This document shows, one piece after another, positions 23,594 to 40,308 of a stretch of 64,000 bases of DNA. The notes beneath the pieces were generated by a model. The model was not told where the DNA came from. It saw only the letters and a program-made list of their open reading frames with translations, and did no database searches. Position numbers and translations under genes: made by a program. The stretch is from Candidatus Bathyarchaeota archaeon (lineage in GTDB: Archaea > Thermoproteota > Bathyarchaeia > 40CM-2-53-6): positions 896,001 through 960,000 of the forward strand of contig CAVTBR010000001.1 of assembly GCA_963733055.1 (NCBI GenBank), given 5' to 3'. The first letter of the stretch is position 1; every line of letters starts with the position of its first letter.

Positions 23594-24067
23594 TTGGACT
23601 CCTTCATCCAGATCGACGAGAAGGAATGGAAAGCGTTTCTTGAGCAACTCTCTCAATTCGAGAAGAAGTATGGATCTCTGCTCAATATGCTGGACATGGA
23701 TGAGAGCAGGCTTCAGGCATTAGCTACACCCGAACAGAGAAAGGTGGAAAGTGTAGAAGCCTCGAGGCAGGAATCTGTGAAGAATCCGGAGAAGCATCAA
23801 GCCGAGCAAGTTAAGATGGGCTTTGTGAGTCGATTGAAGACGAAGCTTGAACACGTCGGTAATGCTTCGACGGGGACGGGCATCCGACAAGGGATTCTCA
23901 ATAAGTCGCAAGCCTTCGCGTCCTGTAGCCGATGTGGGTTCCAGATACTGCAGCCCACCAGATTCTGCCAGCGCTGTGGCGCCGATTTCGGAAAATTGTT
24001 GTGTTCTTGTGGGCGCGAGTTAGGTGCTGGGGATAAGTTCTGCGATCGTTGCGGGCGTGCGTTATGA
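23594..24067 (+). CDS. Double zinc-ribbon protein with N-terminal coiled coil
   Basis: CSRCG..FCQRCG..CSCG..FCDRCG C-terminus. Confidence 0.8.
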   Translation: MDSFIQIDEKEWKAFLEQLSQFEKKYGSLLNMLDMDESRLQALATPEQRKVESVEASRQESVKNPEKHQAEQVKMGFVSRLKTKLEHVGNASTGTGIRQGILNKSQAFASCSRCGFQILQPTRFCQRCGADFGKLLCSCGRELGAGDKFCDRCGRAL

Positions 24068-24104
24068 AGTTGGAGGAGTCGAGCGGTTTGTGAGGGCCGA
24101 TCTG

Positions 24105-24383
24105 TTACTTTGAGATTCGCTTGTCTGCCTCTTTTGCCAGCCGAGACATAATTTCCCGAGCCTTTCTCAGGGAATCATCAGCCTGACGAGTATTATTGGC
24201 CATGTTTGATTCTATGGAGCCAAGCCTCGCCTTTGTAGCCTGAAGTTCATCCCGTAACTGTTTGTTCTCGTTTTCAAGCTGGTCGATCTTGTTCATGAGT
24301 GCTTGGGAGCGGTCGAGCAGTTTCTGGTTTTCTGCGAGGAAGCCCTCGAATTCCTTTCGCTCAACCGTAACTCGATCTGACAT
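24105..24383 (-). CDS. Small coiled-coil protein
   Basis: Continuous heptad pattern over about 80 aa; ATG start. Confidence 0.7.
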   Translation of the reverse strand: MSDRVTVERKEFEGFLAENQKLLDRSQALMNKIDQLENENKQLRDELQATKARLGSIESNMANNTRQADDSLRKAREIMSRLAKEADKRISK

Positions 24384-24508
24384 AAGCGATCAAGCAGTCA
24401 GCTCATTTGCTGGGATATGAGCCATACGGTCTGCTTACTTCTTGCATGACAAAAACAAAGTCAAAAACCGATTGACCGAACAGCTTCCTTGCTTGTTCGT
24501 GTCCTAGG

Positions 24509-25219
24509 TTAGGTGGAGGAGGATGATTGGAGGAAGACGGTGACGGGTGTGAATTGGTCTTGGACGCCATCTGGCAACGTTACGAAGGCTGGAGCGCTTC
24601 CTTGGGCTAGGACATGTAGAGCGTAGAGGTCGAGGGTTGAGAGGTTCGGTACCTGCGCAATCCTTTCTGGGGTGTACCTTGGCTCCATGATGTCTTTGCC
24701 GTCGAGGATGCTGCCCAACCCCAGAATCCTGCCCAGCTCATGTAACGCGAGCCAAAACGCATACCGCCTCGCAGTCGCGTTACTGCCTTGCGCGTCATTG
24801 AAGACTGTTGGCGTCAGGTAGGTTTGGGTTGAGGTTACCGAAGTTCGCGAACCGGCCGCATACTTGTAGGTCGTCCAGCCAACCGCGATTGAAGCGACCG
24901 CGGCGGGCATCGAGAAACTTACGGTCGAGGTTGCGGTTCCGTCGTCTGTCTCAACGAAATTGTACAGTGTCGCGGTTGGGTTGTTCTGTAGGTTCCAGAG
25001 CTGCGCTTTGTTCCAGGCGATCATTGCGTTCAGAACGACGTCATGCGCCCATTTTGGCGTCGTGGGGATGTAGATTTTGATCGTCAGAACGGAGTAACGT
25101 CCGTTGATGGGGATGGAGGGTTGAGCGGCATGGACCGGGGTCAGAGCTGCGAGTGTGATTAGGAGTAGCGGGATGCTGTAGCTGGCAGCCTTAGTTAACC
25201 CCATCTTTCTTCTAGACAA
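24509..25219 (-). CDS. Secreted matrixin/metzincin-like protein with degenerate zinc motif
   Basis: Signal peptide, A...WN, HELGRILGLGS (vs HExxHxxGxxH), Met-turn DIMEP, LS..D..AL. Confidence 0.75.
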   Translation of the reverse strand: MSRRKMGLTKAASYSIPLLLITLAALTPVHAAQPSIPINGRYSVLTIKIYIPTTPKWAHDVVLNAMIAWNKAQLWNLQNNPTATLYNFVETDDGTATSTVSFSMPAAVASIAVGWTTYKYAAGSRTSVTSTQTYLTPTVFNDAQGSNATARRYAFWLALHELGRILGLGSILDGKDIMEPRYTPERIAQVPNLSTLDLYALHVLAQGSAPAFVTLPDGVQDQFTPVTVFLQSSSST

Positions 25220-28113: not shown

Positions 28114-28467
28114 ATGGGACGTGGGAAGTGTAGGAGTTTGCTCCTCCTTACCCAAGAAGAGGCACACCGCCTAACCGACGCCCTAACCCCCTACCACATA
28201 TCAAAAAGCTTCATCATCCAAGAAGCCATCCAGCTCGGATTACAAACCCTAGACCACACAAACATTCCCGGGCCAAGAAGCAGAATACTCCAATTTCGTC
28301 TCCCCGCCAAACTCCACAAGAGGGTAAGAGAACTGGCTCAGGAACGGCACATTAGCCAACAAAGCCTCATCCGATATTTCCTCTTCACATACCTCTCCCA
28401 GTTGGAAAGAAAGAGCACCCCCCTAACAAAAGCCCGAAGCCACAACAGGAGAGGCGGTAGCTGTTGA
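28114..28467 (+). CDS. Tandem ribbon-helix-helix DNA-binding protein
   Basis: Two RHH-like repeats (ISKSFIIQEAI; LQFRLP..L..RVRELA....ISQQSLIR). Confidence 0.65.
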   Translation: MGRGKCRSLLLLTQEEAHRLTDALTPYHISKSFIIQEAIQLGLQTLDHTNIPGPRSRILQFRLPAKLHKRVRELAQERHISQQSLIRYFLFTYLSQLERKSTPLTKARSHNRRGGSC

Positions 28468-28877
28468 AGTTCAGGCATAAATCAAAATGGCAAGAGGCTG
28501 GCCCGATTAGAATCGCAACCTCCGACGAAGACAAACCCGAACACGAGCGGTTGAAGAAGGGAATCATCAAACTCCTCAACAAGTTCGGAGGATACGAACC
28601 CGACCTCGACGATATCTTCGTCGAAGAGATCGCCTCCTCCACCATATACTACAAGAAAATTGAACAATTCCTAGATACCGCCTCCGCAACCGAATACACC
28701 TACGCCAGCATCGCCGACTCTAAACTGAAATGGCAAAAAACCATCCAAACCGCCATGCGCGAACTCGCATTAACTCGCCGCGACCGCCTCGACCAAAAAG
28801 ACCAAACCAACTTCACCCGACAACTTCAGGAAGCCATAGACAAAGCGAAAAAGGCAAAGAAACATTGGGCGATCTAG
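28464..28877 (+). CDS. Putative terminase small subunit (helical hypothetical protein)
   Basis: Size and position directly upstream of, and overlapping, terL; MRELALT..DR resembles the ELGLTP.SR motif of P27-type TerS. Confidence 0.5.
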   Translation: MKFRHKSKWQEAGPIRIATSDEDKPEHERLKKGIIKLLNKFGGYEPDLDDIFVEEIASSTIYYKKIEQFLDTASATEYTYASIADSKLKWQKTIQTAMRELALTRRDRLDQKDQTNFTRQLQEAIDKAKKAKKHWAI

Positions 28878-30202
28878 AGAAAGCCATCCGTGAACTCACC
28901 GAAATCTACCTCCAAGCCCTCACCGACGAAGTTGAGTTCGCTAGGAAGATCCTAGACTTCAACCCCTTCCCCTACCAAGAAGAATTCCTACGCGACCGAT
29001 CCCCGTTGATTGTAGCGTGTTGCGGCAGGCAGGTTGGAAAAACCACCCTAACCGCCATCAAAGCCCTCCACTACGCCCTATCCCAAGACACCACCCGAGT
29101 GCTGATCGTAAGTGCCGGACTAAGACAATCCAAGATATTATTCAACAAAATCCTAGGATACATCGACACCTCCCTACCCCCCAAAGTGTTGACCACCAAG
29201 AAAACCAGCACCCAGGTCAGGTTCGCGAACGGCTCCGAAATAGTAGCCCTACCCTGCGGCCATGATGGGGTAAGCCTCCGCGGCTACACGAGCGACCTCG
29301 CCATAGTCGACGAAGCCAACTTCATGCCCCCCATCGTCATAGACTCCGTCATCAGACCAACAACAATAACCCGACCAGACGCCCGAATCATTATGGTCTC
29401 AACCCCCTGGACCAGAAACCACCCATTCTACGACGCCCTAACCAAACCCGACCAAGGCTTCAAAGCCTACACCTGGCCAAGTTCAATGAACCCGCTAACC
29501 ACAAAGGAGAAACTTGAAGTTGAAAGGAAGACGATTGGAGAGTATGATTTCAACCGCGAATACAACGCCAACTTCCTCGACGACCAATTCAGCTACTTCC
29601 CAAGCAAACTCATCCTAACCTGCACCGACGACTACACCCTCACCGATCAATCCCAAATCAAGTATACACCCAAAGGCAAATACTATGTTGGCATAGATTT
29701 CGGCAAACACGTCGACCACACAGCCATCGCCATAGTAGAAGAACAGAACGACCACTCCCTCCGACTAGTTTACCTCCAAGAACTCCCACTGGAAACCCCC
29801 TACACCACCGCAATAGAAACCATCCACACATTACAAGCCGCCTACCAATTCAGAGGCGGACGCCTCGACCAAACTGGAGTCGGGGAGGCGCCCTTTGAAG
29901 AAATAAGAAAATTCGCCCCAACCATCCAAGGCATCAAATTCACCGCCCCCATCAAAGAAAACATCCTCAGCAAACTACTACTCAAAATGGAACACCACGA
30001 AATCACAATACCCAGAGAACCACAACGCCTCCTCACACAACTAACCCAACAACGCTGCGAACCAACCCAGAGCGGGAACCTGAAGTTCTCGCACCCGGAG
30101 GGAACCCACGACGACCTCGCCTGGGCATTCGCCCTAGCCGTATACGCATACCCAGGAAACCTAGACTGGATGGGCACAGTAATCGGCGTACCCCATTCCT
30201 AG
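28865..30202 (+). CDS. terL: Phage-type terminase large subunit (ATPase + RNase H-like nuclease); ORF open from 28730, likely TTG start 28865
   Basis: PYQ adenine motif, Walker A CGRQVGKTT, LRG, Walker B LAIVDEA, coupling STP, REY.A.F, nuclease VGIDFG, DQTGVG, HDDLAWA. Confidence 0.9.
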   Translation: MGDLEKAIRELTEIYLQALTDEVEFARKILDFNPFPYQEEFLRDRSPLIVACCGRQVGKTTLTAIKALHYALSQDTTRVLIVSAGLRQSKILFNKILGYIDTSLPPKVLTTKKTSTQVRFANGSEIVALPCGHDGVSLRGYTSDLAIVDEANFMPPIVIDSVIRPTTITRPDARIIMVSTPWTRNHPFYDALTKPDQGFKAYTWPSSMNPLTTKEKLEVERKTIGEYDFNREYNANFLDDQFSYFPSKLILTCTDDYTLTDQSQIKYTPKGKYYVGIDFGKHVDHTAIAIVEEQNDHSLRLVYLQELPLETPYTTAIETIHTLQAAYQFRGGRLDQTGVGEAPFEEIRKFAPTIQGIKFTAPIKENILSKLLLKMEHHEITIPREPQRLLTQLTQQRCEPTQSGNLKFSHPEGTHDDLAWAFALAVYAYPGNLDWMGTVIGVPHS

Positions 30203-30335: not shown

Positions 30336-30632
30336 GTGGCGGCAAGCCAAGTCGTGAAAATAACTTCAAAGGGACAGTTTACGCTTCCAGTTGAAATACG
30401 GAGAGAACTGTCACTGGGCAAAGACAGCCACGTCTATGTTACGAAACTGGGGCGACTCATTGTAATCAAGAAGGTTGAGGAATTGTCCTTGGATGACATC
30501 TCAGCCATCCTCGAACCCCTTGCGAAAAGAAACGGCCTCACGCGCAGGATACTCATGGAAGATATTGAGAAGGCAAGGGAGAAAATGCTTGGAGAGAAAC
30601 AAGGCAAAGCCCACCCCCACCGTTCTCATTGA
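30336..30632 (+). CDS. AbrB/MazE/SpoVT-family antitoxin
   Basis: KITSKGQFTLPVEIRRELSL. Confidence 0.88.
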   Translation: MAASQVVKITSKGQFTLPVEIRRELSLGKDSHVYVTKLGRLIVIKKVEELSLDDISAILEPLAKRNGLTRRILMEDIEKAREKMLGEKQGKAHPHRSH

Positions 30633-31044
30633 CACAAACATCCTCGTTTCCGGCCTAGTATTCCTTGACGGTAATGAGCATCGAATACTCAAACTTGCAG
30701 AAGACAAAGCCATAACCCTCGTCCTACCTGACTTCGTACTGAAAGAAGCGAGGGCCGTCCTAAGCCGCCGCTTCCCAGGCCATGAAATATTCCAAGATGC
30801 GTTTCTTCTGCGAGTGAAGCACACCATAGTTCCTTGGAACCGAATCGAACAAGACATCCCCATCCACCGGAGCGAGGTCAGAGACGCAAAGGACGTAGCA
30901 GTGCTGACCTCGATAATTCTAGCCAAACCCGATTTCGCAATAACAGGAGACAAGACTCTAAGAGAGGACATAAAGCACTGCCACGACGCTCAGACCACAA
31001 CTCTTTGCTCTTCAAATGAACTCCTAAAGAAAATCGCGAAATGA
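30589..31044 (+). CDS. PIN-domain toxin (VapC-like); ORF open from 30475
   Basis: VLIDTNILVSG, L.E, RDAKD..VL, ITGDK. Confidence 0.87.
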   Translation: MERNKAKPTPTVLIDTNILVSGLVFLDGNEHRILKLAEDKAITLVLPDFVLKEARAVLSRRFPGHEIFQDAFLLRVKHTIVPWNRIEQDIPIHRSEVRDAKDVAVLTSIILAKPDFAITGDKTLREDIKHCHDAQTTTLCSSNELLKKIAK

Positions 31045-31125
31045 GCTTAGCATACACGGACACCCTTCCCTGGAACTCTTCATGAGCACCCCTATGGACG
31101 GCTACTACATCGACCTCGGTTCCGC

Positions 31126-31256
31126 AAGATTCTTCGCGGCGCCGTGGCGATTTCGCGAGAGGATGGCGCCTAGGATTTTCGATACGAAACTTAGTCTGGT
31201 GCAGAAAGCATCTTTAGTTCCAGCGTGAAACTTGAAGAGGAAGGCGCGATCCTCAA
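31126..31256 (-). pseudogene. Collapsed flippase remnant: copy of the wzx 3' end fused to a copy of the wzx start/upstream region (repeat A)
   Basis: 31159-31202 matches 32881-32924 (40/44) and the wzx tail; 31199-31256 matches 35327-35384 (48/58); junction at GTGC microhomology. Confidence 0.8.
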
Positions 31257-31269
31257 GAAGTTCAATCCC

Positions 31270-31299
31270 TTAAATACATGTCATACATGTTATACGTAC
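31270..31299 (+). promoter_or_regulatory. TATA-like TTAAATA with ATACATGT direct repeats (31274, 31283); probable leaderless, autoregulated TA promoter
   Basis: Within 30 bp upstream of ATG 31300. Confidence 0.5.
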
Positions 31300-31509
31300 A
31301 TGACAGAAGCTGTGTCCGTTAGACTTCCAGAGGATACGGCCAGACGACTAGAAGAACTGGCCCAAGTACTTGAACGTCCGAAGACCTACATTGTCACGAA
31401 GGCTCTGCAGGAATATCTGGAAGAGTACGAGGATTACCTGATTGCAATGCACAGGTTAAACAACAAAGCCGATAAAGTGATCTCAGAGAAAGAACTGGTC
31501 AAGAGTTGA
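31300..31509 (+). CDS. RelB/CopG-type RHH antitoxin
   Basis: VSVRLPED...RLEELA...ERPKTYIV..AL.EYLE..ED. Confidence 0.88.
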   Translation: MTEAVSVRLPEDTARRLEELAQVLERPKTYIVTKALQEYLEEYEDYLIAMHRLNNKADKVISEKELVKS

Positions 31510-31760
31510 CCAGTAACATTTTCTACAAATCTTCCGTCCGCCACGACCTCAAGAAGATTGACCCGAAGAACCTGACGAGAATACTTCGTGAGATAAGAGA
31601 GGTATTGGGAAATAACCCTCATGCAGGCGAAGCATTACGTGGAGAGTTCAAGGGACTATACAAGCTACGCGTCGGTGACTACCGGGTTATCTATGCTCTC
31701 ATAAGTCAAGGGGTGCTTGTGCTGAGAATTAGGTACAGAAGTAAGGCCTACGACTCCTGA
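31506..31760 (+). CDS. relE: RelE/ParE-family toxin
   Basis: DLKKID, NPH.GE.L.G, LYKLRVGDYRVIY, R..AY. Confidence 0.9.
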   Translation: MTSNIFYKSSVRHDLKKIDPKNLTRILREIREVLGNNPHAGEALRGEFKGLYKLRVGDYRVIYALISQGVLVLRIRYRSKAYDS

Positions 31761-31786
31761 GGACGATAGGTACGGTGATTGGTAGC

Positions 31787-32011
31787 TTAGACGGTGACGG
31801 TAATTAGTTCCAACTTGTCCGGTTTCTGTGCCTCGGCACGCGTGTTAAGTTCTTCAAGCACTAACTCGATCGCTTCCCTGATGTTCGAAAGCGCGTGCTC
31901 AGTTTCCCCCTGGCTTATGGCCGCAGGTAACTCAACACACCTAACCGAGTACGCTCCCGTATCCTCCTTCTTGAGGGCAACAGTAAACGTGAGACTCTTC
32001 GACAAGACCAT
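31787..32011 (-). CDS. HicB-family antitoxin (short form; no hicA partner seen)
   Basis: Y.V.C.ELP.AISQGET..AL.NIREAIEL. Confidence 0.85.
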   Translation of the reverse strand: MVLSKSLTFTVALKKEDTGAYSVRCVELPAAISQGETEHALSNIREAIELVLEELNTRAEAQKPDKLELITVTV

Positions 32012-32079
32012 TCACACGCCTCATGTCAGTTAGTGCCTTTTAGGTTTCTCCTCAGAAAGTTACGCACCGAGTTTTCGTT

Positions 32080-32129
32080 CGTTTCGGATCCCCTTACAGG
32101 CGCGTTACTTTGCGATGCGGATGGCGCCT
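32080..32129. repeat. Degenerate copy of the wzx 3' end and downstream flank (repeat B)
   Basis: 32100-32129 vs 33759-33788 = 26/30; keeps an in-frame minus-strand stop (TAA in place of TAG). Confidence 0.75.
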
Positions 32130-32197
32130 CTTCTATTTGAACCGGCGAATATCGTCGAGTCAAACAATGCCTTTGAGAGGTATGCCTTTTATGGTGT

Positions 32198-32218
32198 TTC
32201 CCACTTAATCAGTGGGAA
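32198..32218. promoter_or_regulatory. Inverted repeat TTCCCACT-N5-AGTGGGAA, candidate AbrB operator
   Basis: Perfect 8-bp arms between a TTTTAT box (32187) and ATG 32224. Confidence 0.55.
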
Positions 32219-32223
32219 TACGT

Positions 32224-32460
32224 ATGACCCAGACTGTTGTAGATCAACGTGGTAGAGTACTCATTCCCGAGGATGTGAGGGAAGACTCTGGGCTTGATGA
32301 GGGAACCGTCGTTAAGGTGGAGACTCAAGACGAGGGAATACTGATCAAACCCATTCGGAAAGCTAAGAGATCTTGGAAGCAGCTTTGCGGAATAACACCC
32401 ACCAGGACCGGTAAACCCGAGTGGCCAACACCAGAAGAGATCAAAAACATCTGGCGTTAG
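32224..32460 (+). CDS. AbrB/MazE/SpoVT-family antitoxin (VapB-like)
   Basis: VDQRGRVLIPEDVRE..GL.EG......GILIKP. Confidence 0.88.
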   Translation: MTQTVVDQRGRVLIPEDVREDSGLDEGTVVKVETQDEGILIKPIRKAKRSWKQLCGITPTRTGKPEWPTPEEIKNIWR

Positions 32461-32855
32461 ACTCAAACGTCCTAGTCGCGTACCTCGACCTAGAGCACCC
32501 TCAACACAGCAAAGTAAGATCACTGGCTTCTCGTAGGGTTGCGTTGAATCCGACGGTTGTGCATGAAAGTTACCATACCCTAGTGTTCAAGATGAAATGG
32601 CCATCAAACGAAGCCGCGGAAGTACTGAGAGAGATGCTTGATGACAACCACGTACTATTCCTAAATCAAACTAAAGACACAACCAAGACCGGCTTGAAGT
32701 TCGCAGAACAGTATGGGCTCGGTGGGAGAGACGCCTTAATTTTAGCGAACTTTGTCAACCCTTCTATTTCAGAGTTCGTAACATTCGATAAAGAGCTGAT
32801 TCGGCTACGTAGAGTAGAACATGGCCGCCGCAAGATAACGATACGTGCCACGTAA
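32421..32855 (+). CDS. vapC: VapC-family PIN toxin
   Basis: LDSNVLVA, VVHE, RDALI.A, TFDKEL. Confidence 0.88.
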   Translation: MANTRRDQKHLALDSNVLVAYLDLEHPQHSKVRSLASRRVALNPTVVHESYHTLVFKMKWPSNEAAEVLREMLDDNHVLFLNQTKDTTKTGLKFAEQYGLGGRDALILANFVNPSISEFVTFDKELIRLRRVEHGRRKITIRAT

Positions 32856-32867
32856 CTCGCTAACGTG

Positions 32868-32955
32868 GCTACTTTGCGACGAGGATGAGGCCTAGGATTT
32901 TCGAAACGAAACCTAGTCTGGTGCCTAGGAATTTGTGTATGAGTTCAATATCATG
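32868..32955. repeat. 88-bp copy of the wzx 3' end (repeat C)
   Basis: 75/88 identical to 33763-33850 with no indels; 21-bp identical end GTGTATGAGTTCAATATCATG. Confidence 0.92.
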
Positions 32956-32974
32956 TAGGCCAGACAGGAGGTGC

Positions 32975-33658
32975 TCAAATCAGAAGGTGGAGAGTCACGA
33001 GCATAATCTGTATACAGTGCGCTCTTCCCCGCGATAGAGGTGAGGGCCAGTGACTCTTACCCCCCTGTCGTGCCCTAATGGTAATAGGGACCTCGACGAT
33101 TCTTGCCCCATGTTCTCGCGCCTCAAGGGCAAGACTACCGCATAGGCAATGCCCCCAAAGTTTGACGCTGTGCGCCAGGTCTAATCGAAAAGCCCGGTAA
33201 CCCGACCCTACATCCTCACACCTTACACGTAACCAAGTAAGTGACGATATGATTCTCTCTGAGAAGGGGCGGCTGAGCGCTCTTCTTCCAAGAACTAGGT
33301 CAGCGTAGCCATGAATGATTGGATTTGCCAAGACTGGTATTTCAGATGGGTCATGTTGTCCGTCACCATCAAGCGTTACAACTATTTCTTTGGATGCCAA
33401 CCGTAGACCGATCTCAGTGCTCCTCACAATCCCAAGCCGAATCGCATTTCGGGTGACCTTTGCGCCAGCACGCCTCGCGACCTCAGAAGTCAGATCACTA
33501 CTTGCATCATCGACGACGATAACTTCGTCACAGTAACGCTTGCACCCTTCCACAACTTCACCGATCGTGCTCTGTTCGTTGTTCGCTGGAATTACTGCAG
33601 AGATCTTCAAACCCGTTCCACTTCTTCCAGCCAGATCTCGGCGAAACCCTCCAGCCAT
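32975..33658 (-). CDS. Glycosyltransferase family 2 (DPM synthase-like)
   Basis: VIPANNE, VVDDASSD, LDGDGQHDP, SGYRAF, EVPI. Confidence 0.9.
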   Translation of the reverse strand: MAGGFRRDLAGRSGTGLKISAVIPANNEQSTIGEVVEGCKRYCDEVIVVDDASSDLTSEVARRAGAKVTRNAIRLGIVRSTEIGLRLASKEIVVTLDGDGQHDPSEIPVLANPIIHGYADLVLGRRALSRPFSERIISSLTWLRVRCEDVGSGYRAFRLDLAHSVKLWGHCLCGSLALEAREHGARIVEVPITIRARQGGKSHWPSPLSRGRAHCIQIMLVTLHLLI

Positions 33659-33763
33659 TGTAGAATCGCTAGCTCAATAGTGAAATAAAATATTTCTATA
33701 TCCAACCATTCACAAGTTTGGTAGAGCTAGGAAGCCGTTTAGGATCTTTCGTAGCGCCGCGCG

Positions 33764-35339
33764 CTACTTAGCGACGAGGATGGCGCCTAGCACTTTCGAA
33801 ACGAAACCCAACCTGGTTCCTAGATATCCGTGTATGAGTTCAATATCATGCTCCTTTACCACCTTCAGCAGCCGAAGGGCTGCTAAGTATATGATTCCGC
33901 CAAGAATTATGTATGCAGGTAGCAGAATTCTACTGTAGAAAACCATCTGTACAAGCACGAGAACTCCCGCCATCATTCCCCCCGCAGCCAAGGTTTTCCA
34001 AAACGTCGTTAGGTCAATGCTTATCGCGTTCTTCCGTTTCAAAACAATGATCCCTAAGAGAACGGAGATGACCATCGCTAGTCCGCGGTGCGATCGAAGC
34101 CCCCGTAATTCCCATGAGTGGCAGGAGTACGTACGCGGAAGCGATTGCTAATAGCGTGGACGCAATCGTGATCAACAGGGCCGTTCGAGTCTGTGATAAC
34201 GCTACTAGCATAATACCTAGAACTGAGCCGTACGCGGTGAGGGCAAAGAAGAATGACAATATCGCAAGAGAGGCGGCTCCGCCGCCATATGCTTGACCCA
34301 CAAATGTAATGAGGGCAACCTTGGCAGTCGCGAGCAAGCCGAACGAGAGAGGAACCATCACTAGACTCGCATAACGTGAAGCCAGCCACGTAGCCCTCCT
34401 GCAGCTCTCAAGCCCGCTCCGCCCATGGATATCGGAGTAGGCGGGAAGAAGGGCACTGTTTACTGAACCAGTAATGCCGGTAAGAACACCAAAGGCTGTC
34501 AAGGAAGCATTGTAGACTCCGAGAGCGGCCAGAGGTACAAACGCTATGAGTATCGCGCGATCGAACCAGCTATACACGAAGCCGATGGCGTTCTCGATGC
34601 TCAGCGGCCAAGAGAAGCTGATCAACTTCCTCACCGAAAAAGACTTCTTGGGCAGACCGAGCACGCGAAGTATCAACGCCGCATAAGCCACGAACATAGC
34701 GAGGTCTGACAAAATCCAGCCAATCACGAGACCAACCAAGTTCCGCATCAAAATAATCAGTAAAACAATCAAGCACTGTCTGAGTATGATACCGGCAGAC
34801 CCGATCGTAGCAGCCTCCTTGAACCGTTTCATTCCGAGTAATGTCCCTATGGCGACGGGGAGAGCGCCTGAGTAGACAAGAACGTCGATAGCCAAGAACC
34901 TGAACAGATCGGCTTGCGCAATTGAGCCAAGTAATCGTGACGCGATCGCGGGTGCGGCTAAGAAAACGACAGCCGTTATCGGAATTGAGAACAGGACAGT
35001 CACGCGAAGCGATTGGTAGAATACGGCTGACGCAGTCTCTCTCGAACCTGATGCTAATTCTCCTATGAATGTCGTCGCCGCCAATGTAAACGCCCCTCCG
35101 TTTAGTGTTTGAGAGAGCGCAATGATGAGGGAAAGAATAGCCAGAATCCCCACTTCGGCGGGTGTAATTAGCCGGGCTAAAATAGCGAATGCTAACGCTT
35201 GTGCGACGCTCGTGATGATTATTTGAATCGTGAGGTATGAGGCGCCGCGTGACACTGAGACTGCAGATGTTATGTTTCTGCTGGACGGACCTACCGGACC
35301 AGGCTGGGGTTCCAGGTTCGGGGTAAGTGCAGAATCCAT
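33764..35339 (-). CDS. wzx: Wzx/MOP-family oligosaccharide flippase, split by a +1 frameshift at ~34087 (ORFs 34014..35384 and 33764..34075)
   Basis: LARL..P.E.G, FSWPL, DR..L, LGVYNA, LLP.MGI.GA; deleting one C gives ...IARGLAMVIS... and a continuous ~524-aa protein. Confidence 0.85.
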
Positions 35340-35553
35340 CTTTGGTCCCAGCGTGAAACATGCAGAGGATGGCGCGGTTGTCAACTCATTATGAGTAGAT
35401 AAATCGTTGCACGCGGCATGACGATATTTGGGATCAACCCGACGCTACAAGGTTAGGAATTATGGGATATTAGCAAATGAGGAGATCCTATGTTTCCTGT
35501 TGGATGATTATGCGAAAAGAGCTATCTTCAAGCTGATAGCATTAGCGCGTAAA

Positions 35554-35976: not shown

Positions 35977-38900
35977 TTGATTAATAGGCTTAAGGGATTT
36001 TTTCTCATCGGACTATTCCTCTTAGGCATACTTGCAGTGGGAGTTCCTGTTCAAGCTCACTTCACGCTTGGCAACCTCACAGGCACTTATCCGTATCATA
36101 CTAATGATTTCGACCCGCATGTTCCGGGCGTTATTGGCTACGTATGGCCCGGCAGCGGTCAATGCGCGTATGATGGATTCCCGAACCAGGCGAACACAAA
36201 TGGCTGTGGACCTGGTTATCAGGCACCCTACCCAAACGGAAACCCGCCGGGTGCACCAAGCAATTCTTGGTACCAACTTCAAGGGGACACATATGCTCCA
36301 TTCGGAGCTATTCTCACGGGTACTTCCGGCGACTTGATTTTTGCATTGAACGCATCGGCATGGTCCACAGCTGCGTGCCAGGCCTCCAACGGTGGAACAG
36401 GCTGTACCCGCTTCAGTGGAAGATGGCAGGGGGTCGATATCCTAATCCCGCCGGGCTTCGGTGTTCCCGGAACACCCCAAATTGTCTCGACCATTACGAA
36501 CGATTACTCCGGGATTGCTGTGGCGAGAATCAGCCGCAATGACAGGTACGCACCTGGTTGGACGATGGTCGAGATTCTAGCTGACGCCGGCTTCGATTCG
36601 TCAAGCCCAACCGCAACCCCATATTACGATCACCAAAGCATTGACTTCTCGAGCGTGGGAGAATGGTATTACATTCGAATTAACGGCGTGCTCGCACCAT
36701 CGGTTGCCGGAAGGTACTTCTTCAAAATCCTTCTTGAAGGTGGAACCCCGTCAATCTGCGGAGAAGAAGGCACGGGCACGGGCAGTGGGGCTCTTCCGGG
36801 TGGAAGCTGTTCAGAATTTATTCCAACTGAGAACTGGCCCGTTGTACTCGTGAAGGGGGAGGTTGACCCAGCCATACTCACAGGCACGATCCGGTATGCC
36901 GGTTACAACTCGACACTCTACGGCCAACCAATCCAAGAAGCGGGAAGAGTTTCGGCAAAGATGAGCATGCGTATTGACCCCTACACAGGCCAGCAGAGAT
37001 CAGATTTGCCAACGATTGATGCGATCGGTTACTTCAACGCCACAGCCGACGGCCATTATGAAGTCGAGGGCTTGGCGCCCGGTGTATATGATATCTACGC
37101 TGAAGCTGCGGGATATCCACAGACGTTGTGCACGAGTGGCGTAACCATCCTCAAGGGCCAATCGTTGCACTTCGACTGCTACCTCCAACCGGGGCCGGTG
37201 ATTCACGGTAACGTGTTCACGAAGCACCAGTTCGGTGATGAACCCTGGCCTCTGGGAGACACTGGAACCCCAGGCGGACTAAACGGGCTGGCTGGCACCG
37301 GAGCCGACGTTAACGGTGAATACATGAAAATTGAACTCTACGCCAACGCAACACTCAACAACATACCCGATCCAAGCGCGAACCTGGTGTCATGGTCTCC
37401 TCTTCCATGCGTTGCTGGGGGGCAGGAGCTTTACACAGGTCGGTATACGGCGGGTGCATGCAATGATCCGCGACTTGGCAGTCAGGTAGCATTTCCGTGG
37501 CATGAATACACGCCAAGCAACGGTTACGGCGTTCCTAACCCCGCGACTGCAGTGAGTAATGTCATACCTGGCGGCTACTACCAAGTGTCCGCGGGTGGCA
37601 GGGCGGGAAGTGGTGTTTACTTCGGAAACCTAATGCAAGACCCACAGGGCGTTGGCCCACCACAGCACTGGTTTGTCAACGGCGGAACAACAACCCCATT
37701 CCACTTCGAATTCGGTGTGAAGGGCGAGTATGGTGCACCACGAGACCTTGACGGAATGGTTCCTCAGGTGTATGCCACTTGGGTTAACGGTCTCACGCCA
37801 GGAAGGTACTATGTGCGTGCTTGGACCTTCCGTTACGTTCAAACTGCCCTGGACGGTTCCACGTTCCAAGAATACTACTTTGATGTGACTCCGAACGAGT
37901 GGGCGGGCGACGTAACATTACCAATTGACCTACGCTTGTCGAGCTGGGTGAATAAGACGGTGTACTTCCACGACACCGCCCTCAATACCATAACAACTTC
38001 ACCAATCGACACAGGCGCCGGAGTCATGTCCGGCGTATTGGTTGATGCTAACGGCGTTGTTTGGTCGTACAACCAGACGCTACTAGGTTACAGAGGCTTC
38101 TACACGCTGGGTGCAAAGTCTGGATGGGGCGCAGGAGCCTTCTTCTCCACCTCGACTCTGAGAGTCAGGAACGACCTCGATAAGGCGAAACTGAACGCCC
38201 ATGCAGTTGAGATGGGTCGAGCAGATATTCAGTTCTGGGGTTGGAACGATACTTGGGGTGGTGAGAATTACGGTATTCCGAGTGGAACGTACACCCCGCA
38301 CGTCTATGTGCTCGGTTACCTTGAGCATGGTTCTGAGCAGGTTTCAGTAACGCTGAGTGGTAACCCAACCGCTATCAGCGACCACATGTACCGCGGCGTA
38401 GGCTTCAACCTCACCGTCTACAGCATCGACTGGGAACGGCCCCGAGTTAGCAGGAATTGGGTTTGGGGCAACCCGGTCGGCTACACAGTTACACCGGGCG
38501 GTATTACTTCACCGACTGCGCCCTCAGGAATACCAACCACTCATGGAAGTGACCCAAGCTTCGCCGGTGACCCACGCAACGTGAACGGTATATACATGGT
38601 CGGTGAAGAGATCGATATTGGCGTATACGCGAATGGCACCCTAATCGACTTCATCGGCGACGTTCCTTCCAATTTGCAAGACACGGTGCTGACCAGTTGC
38701 CTCTTCCAGGACGATTCAAACTCCACTGTTCAAATGTGTGGAGGCGGCTGGGACGCCCAATACCAGCAACCAGGCAGCGGCTTAGTGCCGTACCAAGGTA
38801 ATTCGAATGACGCGTACTTTGGCCAAGAGATGAGCGATCCGGGTTTTGTGGGTGGTTACACAGGCGGCATATCCTACTTCACCACTAGAACCCAATTGTT

Positions 38901-40308
38901 CGCGCCAGCCCATTGGAGCCCAACCACCCTATCGGACGGAGGAACGTACAGCCAAGCCGTCACAGGCTACCTCCCACTATACCCATCAGCGATCCCGAGC
39001 GGCCAATATGATTTGAGAGGGTTCACTTACGGGTACATTCAGGACAAATCCTTCTCCGTCTACGCGCAGCCCAGCCAAGTGGCAGATATGAAGATTAACC
39101 TCGTAATCGGTCTCAACGTGAGCTTGGACATCCTCTTCAAGAAAGAGAGCATCATCACGCCAACCGACGCCAACATGTCTGCAAGGGTAAGGTTGTTCGA
39201 TGATTCAGGCACTTTGGTCGCCGAATGGATGTCGAGCGAAGGCACGTACGTAACAGGAAAGGGATTCGCAAGAGCAGCGGACGGAACGGACCAATACCCG
39301 TTCGGCCCACTACACCCCGCGATCCCCGTACCCAAACCACTCAACACCTACAACTACTTACCCGGAGGCGTGACACTGCTACACGTCTTAATGGCTGGGT
39401 TCCCTCAGGTACCTGCCGCAGGCACTGATGCTGGAGTCCTATCACCTTTCGTTCCCCAGCAAATATACTTCAACGATCCACTATTCGCAACCACGATCTG
39501 CGGCTTCCAAGTAGACTGCTACACAAGCCCAGGCACCGGACTAGGCGTAGGCGTGCCAGGATATTTCCCCAACACTGGAATCTCCGGGGCACCAGATTAT
39601 ACCGGCGGCTGGACGGCTGAAGTAGACTTCGTCCCATGGTACGCCAACAACACAAGCACGATGGAATTTGCGAGTGGCGGTGTACAAGTCGCAACGCAGG
39701 GCAGCACCTTCGCACAGTACTATCCCCCAGTCAACGGCTTGCTCATGGGCGAATCTTATCACATCATCCCAGGCACCACGGCGACCTCAGGCATCAGCCT
39801 AACAGAGGACACCGCGCTCAAACCTGAACTGATCGGACACAGCCTCGCCGCCAACCACCTAGGACCATACTCGCAGAAGGGCGTCTGGCAAATAGCCGGC
39901 ACCCACAACAGCGGTGAAGCAAGCGGCATATTCGAAGTAGACCTCAACGGCTTCGTGTCAGGCAACGCCTTAGCATTCACTTGGAGCAACGAGTTCCGGC
40001 CATTGAGCTGGGGCTTAGTCAACGTCGTCGGCGCGAGCGCAATCAACTCGACCGGATGGAACTTCTACACGTACGACGGCATCTACCAAGCCTACCTACC
40101 CACGGGAACATACAAGTTCACCATCAGCGCACCAGGGTACGCGGCTCAAACCTGGTCAGTCTCAATCTCACCAGGCCAGACAGGCACAGGCCAGAACATC
40201 TACCTAGAACAGACTAACATACCCGTCCCAGAATTCACCGCAATCGCAATAGTCACCATCTCGGCGCTAGCAGGATCACTATACCTACTAAGACGCAGAC
40301 GCAAGTAG
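35977..40308 (+). CDS. Large cell-surface glycoprotein with PEF-CTERM archaeosortase signal (S-layer candidate)
   Basis: Signal peptide, several carboxypeptidase-regulatory-like beta-sandwiches, many N-x-S/T sequons, C-terminal VPEF-TM-RRRRK. Confidence 0.88.
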   Translation: MINRLKGFFLIGLFLLGILAVGVPVQAHFTLGNLTGTYPYHTNDFDPHVPGVIGYVWPGSGQCAYDGFPNQANTNGCGPGYQAPYPNGNPPGAPSNSWYQLQGDTYAPFGAILTGTSGDLIFALNASAWSTAACQASNGGTGCTRFSGRWQGVDILIPPGFGVPGTPQIVSTITNDYSGIAVARISRNDRYAPGWTMVEILADAGFDSSSPTATPYYDHQSIDFSSVGEWYYIRINGVLAPSVAGRYFFKILLEGGTPSICGEEGTGTGSGALPGGSCSEFIPTENWPVVLVKGEVDPAILTGTIRYAGYNSTLYGQPIQEAGRVSAKMSMRIDPYTGQQRSDLPTIDAIGYFNATADGHYEVEGLAPGVYDIYAEAAGYPQTLCTSGVTILKGQSLHFDCYLQPGPVIHGNVFTKHQFGDEPWPLGDTGTPGGLNGLAGTGADVNGEYMKIELYANATLNNIPDPSANLVSWSPLPCVAGGQELYTGRYTAGACNDPRLGSQVAFPWHEYTPSNGYGVPNPATAVSNVIPGGYYQVSAGGRAGSGVYFGNLMQDPQGVGPPQHWFVNGGTTTPFHFEFGVKGEYGAPRDLDGMVPQVYATWVNGLTPGRYYVRAWTFRYVQTALDGSTFQEYYFDVTPNEWAGDVTLPIDLRLSSWVNKTVYFHDTALNTITTSPIDTGAGVMSGVLVDANGVVWSYNQTLLGYRGFYTLGAKSGWGAGAFFSTSTLRVRNDLDKAKLNAHAVEMGRADIQFWGWNDTWGGENYGIPSGTYTPHVYVLGYLEHGSEQVSVTLSGNPTAISDHMYRGVGFNLTVYSIDWERPRVSRNWVWGNPVGYTVTPGGITSPTAPSGIPTTHGSDPSFAGDPRNVNGIYMVGEEIDIGVYANGTLIDFIGDVPSNLQDTVLTSCLFQDDSNSTVQMCGGGWDAQYQQPGSGLVPYQGNSNDAYFGQEMSDPGFVGGYTGGISYFTTRTQLFAPAHWSPTTLSDGGTYSQAVTGYLPLYPSAIPSGQYDLRGFTYGYIQDKSFSVYAQPSQVADMKINLVIGLNVSLDILFKKESIITPTDANMSARVRLFDDSGTLVAEWMSSEGTYVTGKGFARAADGTDQYPFGPLHPAIPVPKPLNTYNYLPGGVTLLHVLMAGFPQVPAAGTDAGVLSPFVPQQIYFNDPLFATTICGFQVDCYTSPGTGLGVGVPGYFPNTGISGAPDYTGGWTAEVDFVPWYANNTSTMEFASGGVQVATQGSTFAQYYPPVNGLLMGESYHIIPGTTATSGISLTEDTALKPELIGHSLAANHLGPYSQKGVWQIAGTHNSGEASGIFEVDLNGFVSGNALAFTWSNEFRPLSWGLVNVVGASAINSTGWNFYTYDGIYQAYLPTGTYKFTISAPGYAAQTWSVSISPGQTGTGQNIYLEQTNIPVPEFTAIAIVTISALAGSLYLLRRRRK

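Follow-up and report, generated by a model that had tools for sequence, protein, structure and literature searches.

Displaced 3' ends of a flippase gene between toxin-antitoxin cassettes in a hypervariable region of a Bathyarchaeia genus

How did pieces of a single protein-coding gene come to lie repeatedly between small gene cassettes on an archaeal chromosome? The question is raised by a locus of a Candidatus Bathyarchaeota archaeon from soil, as yet uncultured (assembly GCA_963733055.1, contig CAVTBR010000001.1, positions 896,001 to 960,000 of the forward strand). This whole stretch of 64,000 nucleotides is referred to as the window and the genome to which it belongs as G000. In the window, the 3' end of the flippase gene wzx recurs three times among toxin-antitoxin (TA) modules and a glycosyltransferase gene. 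The initial annotation regarded this arrangement as an integron-like accretion site, at which small cassettes, each equipped with a replacement flippase tail, integrate serially. The comparisons described here favor, with a probability of roughly 55%, a hotspot at which recombination adds DNA to the wzx 3' end, situated in a hypervariable zone between a TA-rich region and glycosylation genes. The argument starts from the following features, the tails being numbered from 33763 (tail position 1), one base outside the wzx stop codon:

33764..35339, minus strand: wzx flippase gene, present here as two open reading frames (ORFs; 34014-35384 and 33764-34075), Pfam Polysacc_synt_3
33763..33850, listed on the plus strand: tail t1, the true wzx 3' end (last 29 codons and stop codon)
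32868..32955, plus strand: tail copy t2, covering tail positions 1-88 with an intact reading frame and stop codon
32104..32129, plus strand: tail copy t3, tail positions 1-26 only
32130..32155, plus strand: 26 nt following t3, not derived from wzx, tRNA T-arm-like, travelling with the AbrB-PIN#2 cassette
31146..31202, plus strand: tail copy t4, from the wzx 3' end, spanning tail positions ~4-56, with a degenerate stop-codon end
31199..31256, plus strand: wzx 5'-end copy comprising 45 upstream nt, the ATG and 10 further nt, joined to t4

A repeat search of the window recovered the last 88 bases of wzx in direct orientation at 32868-32955, 32104-32129 and 31146-31202. The three further tails reported by the initial annotation thus exist, at the positions given there or within a few bases of them, and the start-to-start distances of 895, 764 and ~958 nt agree with the spacing of about 0.75-0.95 kb. 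Its match counts were also correct, both for t2, which is identical to t1 at 75 of 88 positions (85%), and for the segment 32100-32129 (26/30). The 44-nt core of t4 (31159-31202) shows 82% identity to t1 and 91% to t2. For t3, the repeat match (32106-32144) is 72% identical to t1 and is clearly tail only over the first ~26 nt (32104-32129). BLAST of the 88-mer against the whole 2.88-Mb assembly (three contigs) gave E values of 1e-22 for t2, 1.5e-6 for t4 and 0.118 for t3, the sole further match being a 19-nt stretch at chance level (C1:1505216). An nhmmer profile made from 14 tails scored the three copies at 2.7e-25, 9.8e-11 and 0.029, respectively; a weak match outside the locus was noticed at C2:25789-25843 (E 0.0021). 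By score alone, t3 is marginal, but orthology with the single tail of L045, the closest relative, secures it: only one of the first 26 positions differs and the left flank with the HicB gene is common to both. The segment fused to t4 matches the wzx start region (31199-31256 versus 35327-35384) with 83% identity and an E value of 1.6e-10, so that t4 and this segment together are one wzx copy gutted by an internal deletion of ~1.5 kb. This 5'-end copy goes beyond the initial annotation, as does a single-base frameshift in wzx.

The frame of wzx is broken in the present assembly by one extra base near 34087. The base is missing from contigs of the sequencing runs X1 (at least 99% identical to the window) and X2, and a homologue in locus L044 is an unbroken protein of 523 amino acids. 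Because of these contigs and the whole homologue, the frameshift is probably a 1-base assembly error and the flippase intact. Judged by its domains (PF13440, Polysacc_synt_3, 2.7e-23; PF01943, 2.1e-16), the product is a predicted Wzx/MOP flippase, a membrane protein of the Polysacc_synt family encoded in a glycosylation cluster with an adjoining family-2 glycosyltransferase (GT2). Across the stop codon (33745-33770), and in several attached and solitary copies, a palindrome GTAGC-N7-12-GCTAC was seen by eye; the corresponding small hairpin shows up in some DNA folds.

Could the repeats themselves have been made or collapsed by the assembler? Such an origin would be in keeping with the probable error in wzx and with an array of a related genome (G032) that is broken into contigs at or near its tails. 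However, contigs of the independent assembly X1 (at least 99% identical) cross 31030-31207 and 32850-33027 without a single difference; hence these two junctions are not assembly artefacts. The copies are diverged and not identical, and the same architecture exists in other assemblies and in metagenomes. An artefact is therefore extremely improbable.

Given that the copies are real, their nature can be derived from their divergence. They were compared, assembly against assembly, across 23 genomes of this Bathyarchaeia genus and metagenome contigs, the material consisting mostly of metagenome-assembled genomes and short metagenome contigs. In all eight solitary copies with a length of 88 nt or more, frame and stop codon of wzx are preserved and near-normal peptides are encoded. 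Differences at third, first and second codon positions number 148, 115 and 82 in the solitary copies and 124, 76 and 23 in the six gene-attached copies; M44 and M47 were dropped from the latter count, as their stop-proximal ends differ. Moreover, two tails from the same genome do not resemble each other more than they resemble alleles from other lineages. Since the frame is kept, third positions are preferred and clustering by genome is absent, the tails represent ends of distinct, once-functional wzx alleles rather than drifted local duplicates.

It is also evident that these ends were worn down. The outer boundary of all copies is located at the stop codon or a few bases beyond, while the inner ends are found at tail positions 26, 28, 34, 56, 61, 88, ~97, ~105, 113, 143 and ~458. 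Identities between tails amount to 72-93% (75-93% over the shared 88 nt). L045 is 93% identical to G000 over 5.4 kb, from 32955 through the GT2 gene and wzx into an S-layer-like gene. To the left of GT2, it possesses a wzx fragment of ~458 nt, 86% like the allele of G032 (a second species of the genus), at the place where G000 has the 88-nt t2, and t2 is the same fragment minus tail positions 89 to ~451. Because L045 keeps ~458 nt there, the length of 88 nt results from a secondary deletion and does not mark a designed site. L046 revealed further internal deletions. The assumption that each cassette carries a purpose-built replacement tail thus finds no support, all the more since t4 is joined to a wzx 5' end, inner ends lie anywhere from 26 to ~458 and the AbrB-PIN#2 cassette also resides at tail-less loci of four other species, as described below.

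The genes between and beside the tails were assigned by Pfam and agree with the modules that the initial annotation had named for each interval and for the left side of the outermost copy:

28730..30202, plus strand: gene resembling a terminase large subunit, bounding the TA zone on its outer (left) side (Terminase_6N, 6e-14)
30336..31044, plus strand: AbrB/MazE antitoxin and PIN toxin, module #1 (30336-30632 and PIN ORF 30475-31044; MazE_antitoxin 5e-6, PIN_3 2e-10)
31225..31760, plus strand: RHH antitoxin (likely 31300-31509) and ParE/RelE toxin (31506-31760); RHH_1 3.7e-7, ParE_toxin 5.3e-11
31787..32011, minus strand: HicB-like antitoxin without a HicA partner (HicB_lk_antitox, 2.7e-6)
32156..32867, plus strand: AbrB-PIN#2 cassette (AbrB/MazE 32212-32460, PIN 32421-32855; 2e-9 and 2.6e-11)
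32975..33658, minus strand: GT2, downstream of and co-directional with wzx (Glycos_transf_2, 1.8e-21)

The modules are predicted members of type II TA families, with MazE/AbrB plus PIN occurring twice, RHH plus ParE once and HicB alone. Module #1 sits to the left of t4, the outermost tail copy, and gene orientations across the G000 array are +,+,-,+,+,-.

What moves at this locus becomes apparent from the closest relatives. L045 lacks AbrB-PIN#2; its HicB-like gene (an orthologue at 94%) is followed by one tail and then by GT2. Its four positions that discriminate between the copies (2, 13, 21 and 22) agree with t3, and its sequence from position 27 on agrees with t2. One entire cassette is thus present or absent, in register, between close relatives, and the junction falls at tail positions 22-27. 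The same joint (32093 to 32870, without AbrB-PIN#2) was found in a contig of run X2 with a depth of 24.7. The differences in cassette content that the initial annotation had expected between relatives thus occur, and G032, with 5+3 tails and mostly other cassettes, supplies a further case; gene order varies among the relatives instead of being fixed. Two other joints in X2 contigs, 33940 to 32958 and 33822 to 30003, were considered as traces of circles. This was rejected, since other linear arrangements explain both, the first corresponding to the long stub of the L045 type. The runs X3 and X4 yielded no further joint of use.

Cassettes are also shared across diverged backgrounds. One of them, for which Pfam gave no match (G032 C62:6194-6821), recurs in L045 with 98.25% identity over 630 nt and in L042 with 96.5%, whereas the backbone from wzx to the S-layer-like gene is only ~80% identical between L045 and G032. 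The segment 31265-31558 of the RHH-ParE module has a 90% identical counterpart in G032 (C62:9879-9586), which is inverted there. AbrB-PIN#2, 90.5% identical to G032 C62:7221-7965, is followed on its right by something different in each of three cases: in G000 by GT2, in G032 by a membrane-protein segment and in L046 by a VapB fragment with HicBA. Its joint with tail position 1 involves two alternative positions of the cassette, the first in G000 and G032 and the second in L046. In four other species (G018, G014, G034 and G007), the cassette is present with 78-85% identity at loci without any wzx tail. Degenerate tails beside AbrB-PIN in G014, first seen by eye, were dropped because the nhmmer tail profile finds none in L055-L058. 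In G007, AbrB-PIN#2 lies between two tRNA-3'-end-like fragments; these, and the tRNA-like fragment in G015, were not called tRNA by ARAGORN or Rfam. The 26 nt following t3 (32130-32155) align, in G007 and G034, to the cassette's left flank at a tRNA-3'-end-like fragment and share a 14-nt identity with a displaced tRNA-Gly(TCC) half in G000 (C3:631604-631653). Tail b of G032 matches L042 at 25 of 26 positions in its left part and at ~75%, by hand count, in its inner part; this mosaic is suggestive only and explicable either way. For all these changes, we infer the direction (insertion versus deletion), the order of events and the enzyme.

Tail copies were detected in four of the 23 genomes: four in G000, eight matches in G032, one solitary copy in G013 and one on the own wzx of G004. 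The remaining matches of this search belong to the GT2 part of the query. In addition, all six metagenome loci found by the pattern contain tails, five of them with a tail attached to the wzx body; L045 and L046 have two tails each. The contigs C62 and C82 of G032 overlap end to end and yield one five-tail array, in which the terminase gene and several TA pairs are followed by tails a, b, c and d and finally by the real wzx end, h. A contig of 2.8 kb (C191) contains tails e, f and g and resembles, at its end, d plus the ParE cassette (89%); this contig represents a second array or else a variant that was co-assembled. Most cassettes of G032 are unlike those of G000; the set comprises a pair of unannotated ORFs, AbrB-PIN#2, a segment of several genes with UPF0175-DUF3368/PIN, ParE, VapB-PIN and HicB-HicA. 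Just to the left of tail a (C62; L035 4693-5034), an ORF with a TnpB-like C-terminal motif was noticed by eye only. G004 has a single tail on a broken wzx with TA pairs nearby, and the solitary tail of G013 is located between a TA pair and an epimerase/glycosyltransferase cluster without a wzx of that type. This tail and the fusion of t4 to a wzx 5' end point to events that involved a whole wzx.

The outer and inner borders of the region merit a remark. The terminase gene is 88% identical at the nucleotide level to G032 C62:2-1465, which likewise borders the array. It stands alone (region 28114-30202), preceded by an RHH-like ORF and an ORF of 137 amino acids, and no capsid genes were seen; in G004, an inverted broken pair is present, and in G015 the gene is located ~8 kb from a tRNA-end-like site. 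As a search of a viral collection detected neither a relative of the terminase nor the tail pattern, a virus origin of the array was rejected. The X2 joint mentioned above connects 33822 (tail position 60) with 30003 in the 3' part of the terminase gene, and the terminase segment itself may lie behind a tail copy in some genomes. On the other side, just past wzx (35977-40308), a secreted protein of 1443 amino acids with a C-terminal membrane anchor is encoded. It was judged S-layer-like from its sequence, and its gene shows 70-72% nucleotide conservation in G018, G015 and G004.

A simple explanation would be that the copies are remnants of tandem wzx paralogues deleted in place, with TA genes between them and without any mobility of cassettes. 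Tandem wzx paralogues are indeed known in the genus (G002 C43:21994-23181 and 23685-24875), t4 with its 5'-end copy looks like a gutted wzx and deletions are frequent. By contrast, the surviving pieces are 3' ends only, bar one 5' piece. A cassette that is 98% identical in 80% identical backgrounds weighs heavily against it, and so do the three right-hand neighbors of AbrB-PIN#2, its presence at non-wzx loci in four species and the difference of close relatives by a whole in-register cassette. Decay as the sole process is thus very unlikely.

What the data do require is repeated additive events at the wzx end, some of them with a whole wzx, together with pervasive deletion, recombination between or within tails and exchange across lineages. 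In the hotspot proposed above, segments from related lineages, containing TA pairs, glycosyltransferases and sometimes a whole new wzx, would join at the wzx end, and each event would displace the previous wzx 3' end downstream as a stub. The stubs would begin long (at least 458 nt in one relative) and be shortened by deletions. As direct repeats with 75-93% identity over the shared 88 nt, they could allow in-register loss, re-insertion and exchange of cassettes. The predominance of TA pairs may be due to self-stabilising, selfish modules that outlast the streamlining of their carriers. Neither a dedicated linked recombinase nor an attC-type site would be involved, the engine being most likely host homologous or short-homology recombination.

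The searches for recombinases fit with this. G000 has six genes for tyrosine recombinases (PF00589), none of which is in the window, as already stated by the initial annotation, and the nearest is ~0.5 Mb away. The genome contains no serine recombinase and no TnpB (PF07282), and beyond the locus only the chance-level and weak tail matches mentioned above were obtained. On the tail-bearing contigs of G032, G013 (135 kb) and G004, no tyrosine recombinase is encoded. The data thus give no direct sign of a dedicated recombinase and do not need one.

Several observations nevertheless weigh against host recombination as the driving force. Since t3 comprises only 26 nt of tail, of which 21 are identical to t2, a junction in register at 22-27 is demanding for homologous recombination. 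The ends of three truncated copies (26, 28 and 34) adjoin GGCGCCTAG, the block of highest conservation, which a fixed crossover site would lead one to expect; based on 11 junctions, this clustering is only suggestive. Cassette joints fall repeatedly on the stop-codon boundary, and the assembled contigs include no circular intermediate or donor molecule.

A serious rival, if rather less than probable, is that an unlinked tyrosine integrase uses the wzx end as an attachment site, perhaps as a secondary site of a tRNA-targeting enzyme, with a crossover near GGCGCCTAG at positions 20-28. Under this assumption, the small cassettes would be integrase-less elements that were mobilised in trans, stacked in tandem and then eroded. 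The junction between G000 and L045 and the ends of the truncated copies match such a crossover. The region of t3 is a hybrid of tail positions 1-26 and the tRNA-T-arm-like piece of the AbrB-PIN#2 cassette, and the tRNA-3'-end-like flanks of this cassette in G007 point in the same direction. Arrays were found only with wzx alleles carrying GGCGCCTAG, while the alleles of G002, G018 and G015 have neither the block nor arrays; this correlation is confounded by relatedness. Enzymes of the required type appear to have been active recently in G000: one of the six recombinases is encoded by a 5.1-kb element (C1:1423411-1428536, L052), which served as a control for fresh integration and looks like a recent one, being flanked by perfect direct repeats, 37 nt long, of a tRNA 3' end. 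The comparison with this control also speaks against an integrase, since the tails, unlike its repeats, are 72-93% identical to each other. No integrase is present on any tail-bearing contig. Furthermore, inner ends are spread from 26 to ~458 and at least one short end arose by secondary deletion. Conservation of the tail does not exceed that of the remaining wzx gene (mean of 77% for the last 100 nt, compared to 71-83%). No tRNA gene of G000 ends in GGCGCCA, a single such site was found in the 23 genomes and the fragments in G007 were, as mentioned, not called tRNA by Rfam. Exact mimicry, in register, of a tRNA end by the wzx end was considered and rejected, as the spacing deviates by 2 nt from the only GGCGCCA-ending tRNA-like site of the genus (G015), and remains a weak lead only.

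A stronger version, namely that the wzx end is a true attachment site of an integrase-less cassette system, whose TA cassettes are captured, stacked and exchanged among Bathyarchaeia lineages, with strand exchange at GGCGCCTAG, by a recombinase encoded elsewhere, possibly a tRNA-end integrase for which the wzx end is a look-alike, is doubtful. If true, it would be an archaeal functional analogue of the integron, built on the last codons of a protein-coding gene. It is conceivable that such a system is part of a wider archaeal habit, so far undescribed, of stacking genes behind displaced gene ends. Other displaced ends around small inserts exist in the genome of G000 and also speak for the hotspot favored above. 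A 50-nt copy (94%) of the 3' half of tRNA-Gly(TCC) is located 964 nt from the gene, with two Pfam-less ORFs in between (C3:631604-632617, L050). At C1:75586-77495 (L051), an amino-acid permease gene has a second copy of its end 1.8 kb downstream, with two genes enclosed, and at C1:622397-623136 (L048), next to a GT2 gene, a ParE-like pair is enclosed by an 86-nt repeat (92%).

By its layout alone, the locus resembles an integron, and the TA pairs in it, which usually carry their own autoregulated operons, have a bearing on this comparison. Archaeal integrons exist and need IntI and attC (PMC9668308). The wzx array has in common with them a series of small cassettes divided by repeats; TA cassettes also occur in chromosomal integrons, and in CALIN arrays an adjoining integrase is likewise lacking. 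By contrast, the best score for an integron integrase in the whole genome of G000 was 37.2 bits (TIGR02249, cut-off 265). Folding of eight tail regions as DNA resulted in z-scores, relative to shuffled sequence, between -2.66 and +1.07, with three of eight at or below -1.96, and did not reveal a shared structure that would speak for attC-like folding. The repeats are gene fragments in which no consistent hairpin was seen, and the cassettes, unlike promoterless ones of a single orientation, face both ways and carry their own regulators. From the initial annotation, the accretion at the edge of a variable glycosylation region has proved to be real, as relatives differ by whole cassettes at the tails. 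Its integron-like character finds no counterpart in an integron integrase, a recombinase on the tail-bearing contigs, a common fold or a uniform orientation.

A third mode of spread to be considered is homing, in which an endonuclease gene that cuts the wzx end is copied in together with a resistant, recoded replacement end. Such cut-and-recode homing is the mode of WHO elements at the yeast gene FBA1 and of mobile ORFs of fungal mitochondria. Displaced ends with a coding-type divergence and a preserved frame are what it predicts, and with the PIN domains and the terminase, nucleases are at hand. PIN toxins of TA pairs, however, are generally known as RNases. No LAGLIDADG, HNH or GIY-YIG match was obtained in the scanned cassette proteins, the ORFs of L043 and L044 having been read by eye only. 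The wzx-proximal slot, in which the endonuclease gene should reside, is occupied by GT2 (G000, L045), ParE (G032), an unannotated ORF (L042), a large co-directional ORF (L043, no domain scan) or a membrane protein (L044, L047, G004). Homing therefore appears highly improbable. WHO elements of Torulaspora and Lachancea are reported to form clusters of inserted genes among displaced 3' fragments of one working host gene, FBA1 (PMC7282813). The wzx locus, which has no endonuclease gene in the corresponding slot, differs from this description.

Among integrative elements, prophage e14 and phage 21, which reside in icd of Escherichia coli together with a displaced icd end, provide a parallel to the hotspot. 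The same applies to the tycheposons of Prochlorococcus, which target tRNA genes and are reported as additive islands that integrative elements build at gene 3' ends (bioRxiv 10.1101/2020.12.28.424599). What these elements and the wzx array have in common are direct repeats consisting of displaced 3' ends of the target gene, newcomers that push older ones outward, and scattered degenerate remnants and partial target copies next to a target that stays whole. At wzx, too, direct repeats of the 3' end accompany a target gene that is intact, bar the probable 1-base assembly error. On the other hand, the target is here a protein-coding flippase gene in an archaeon, and neither an integrase nor a remnant of it was found inside the scanned arrays or a fragment near any of them. 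The repeats are stubs of very unequal length with 72-93% identity rather than a defined att site, and the cargo consists almost only of TA pairs of 0.6-0.9 kb.

CIMEs related to streptococcal integrative and conjugative elements (ICEs) lack an integrase, possess att-like flanks, accrete in tandem and are thought to be mobilised in trans. Small integrase-less units stacked in tandem between att-like repeats are a feature that the wzx array shares with them. Unlike CIMEs, it has no identified helper element or integrase and no demonstrated conserved att core, and a full-size element carrying a wzx tail was not found. With regard to content, the locus resembles the TA hotspots of Photorhabdus, small spots of high turnover in which, according to the abstract, TA systems arrive on mobile elements that are later streamlined away and are frequently lost (PMC13617665). 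The clustering of TA pairs and their frequent loss agree with this, while displaced gene ends as boundaries of cassettes are not mentioned in that abstract. No such array is described in the literature that was searched on archaeal integrons, on TA genes with flippase repeats, on TA systems and integrases of Bathyarchaeia and on wzx integration sites (supplementary tables being outside the scope).

The gain and shuffling of accessory genes in uncultured archaea are poorly known, and most of these organisms lack recognisable mobile machinery near their variable regions. The wzx locus is a clear instance of this, and one that recurs: swapped cassettes are bounded by displaced ends of a single gene of the housekeeping type, and no integrase is in sight. 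Should host recombination be responsible on its own, this would be a simple route by which selfish TA modules gather, and cross lineages, at the edge of a surface-glycosylation island. If an unlinked integrase is at work, the locus would be a cassette platform of a new kind. In both cases, the displaced ends are scars that can be dated and that record how flippase alleles were replaced, a history which bears on the diversification of surface glycans and probably on virus pressure.

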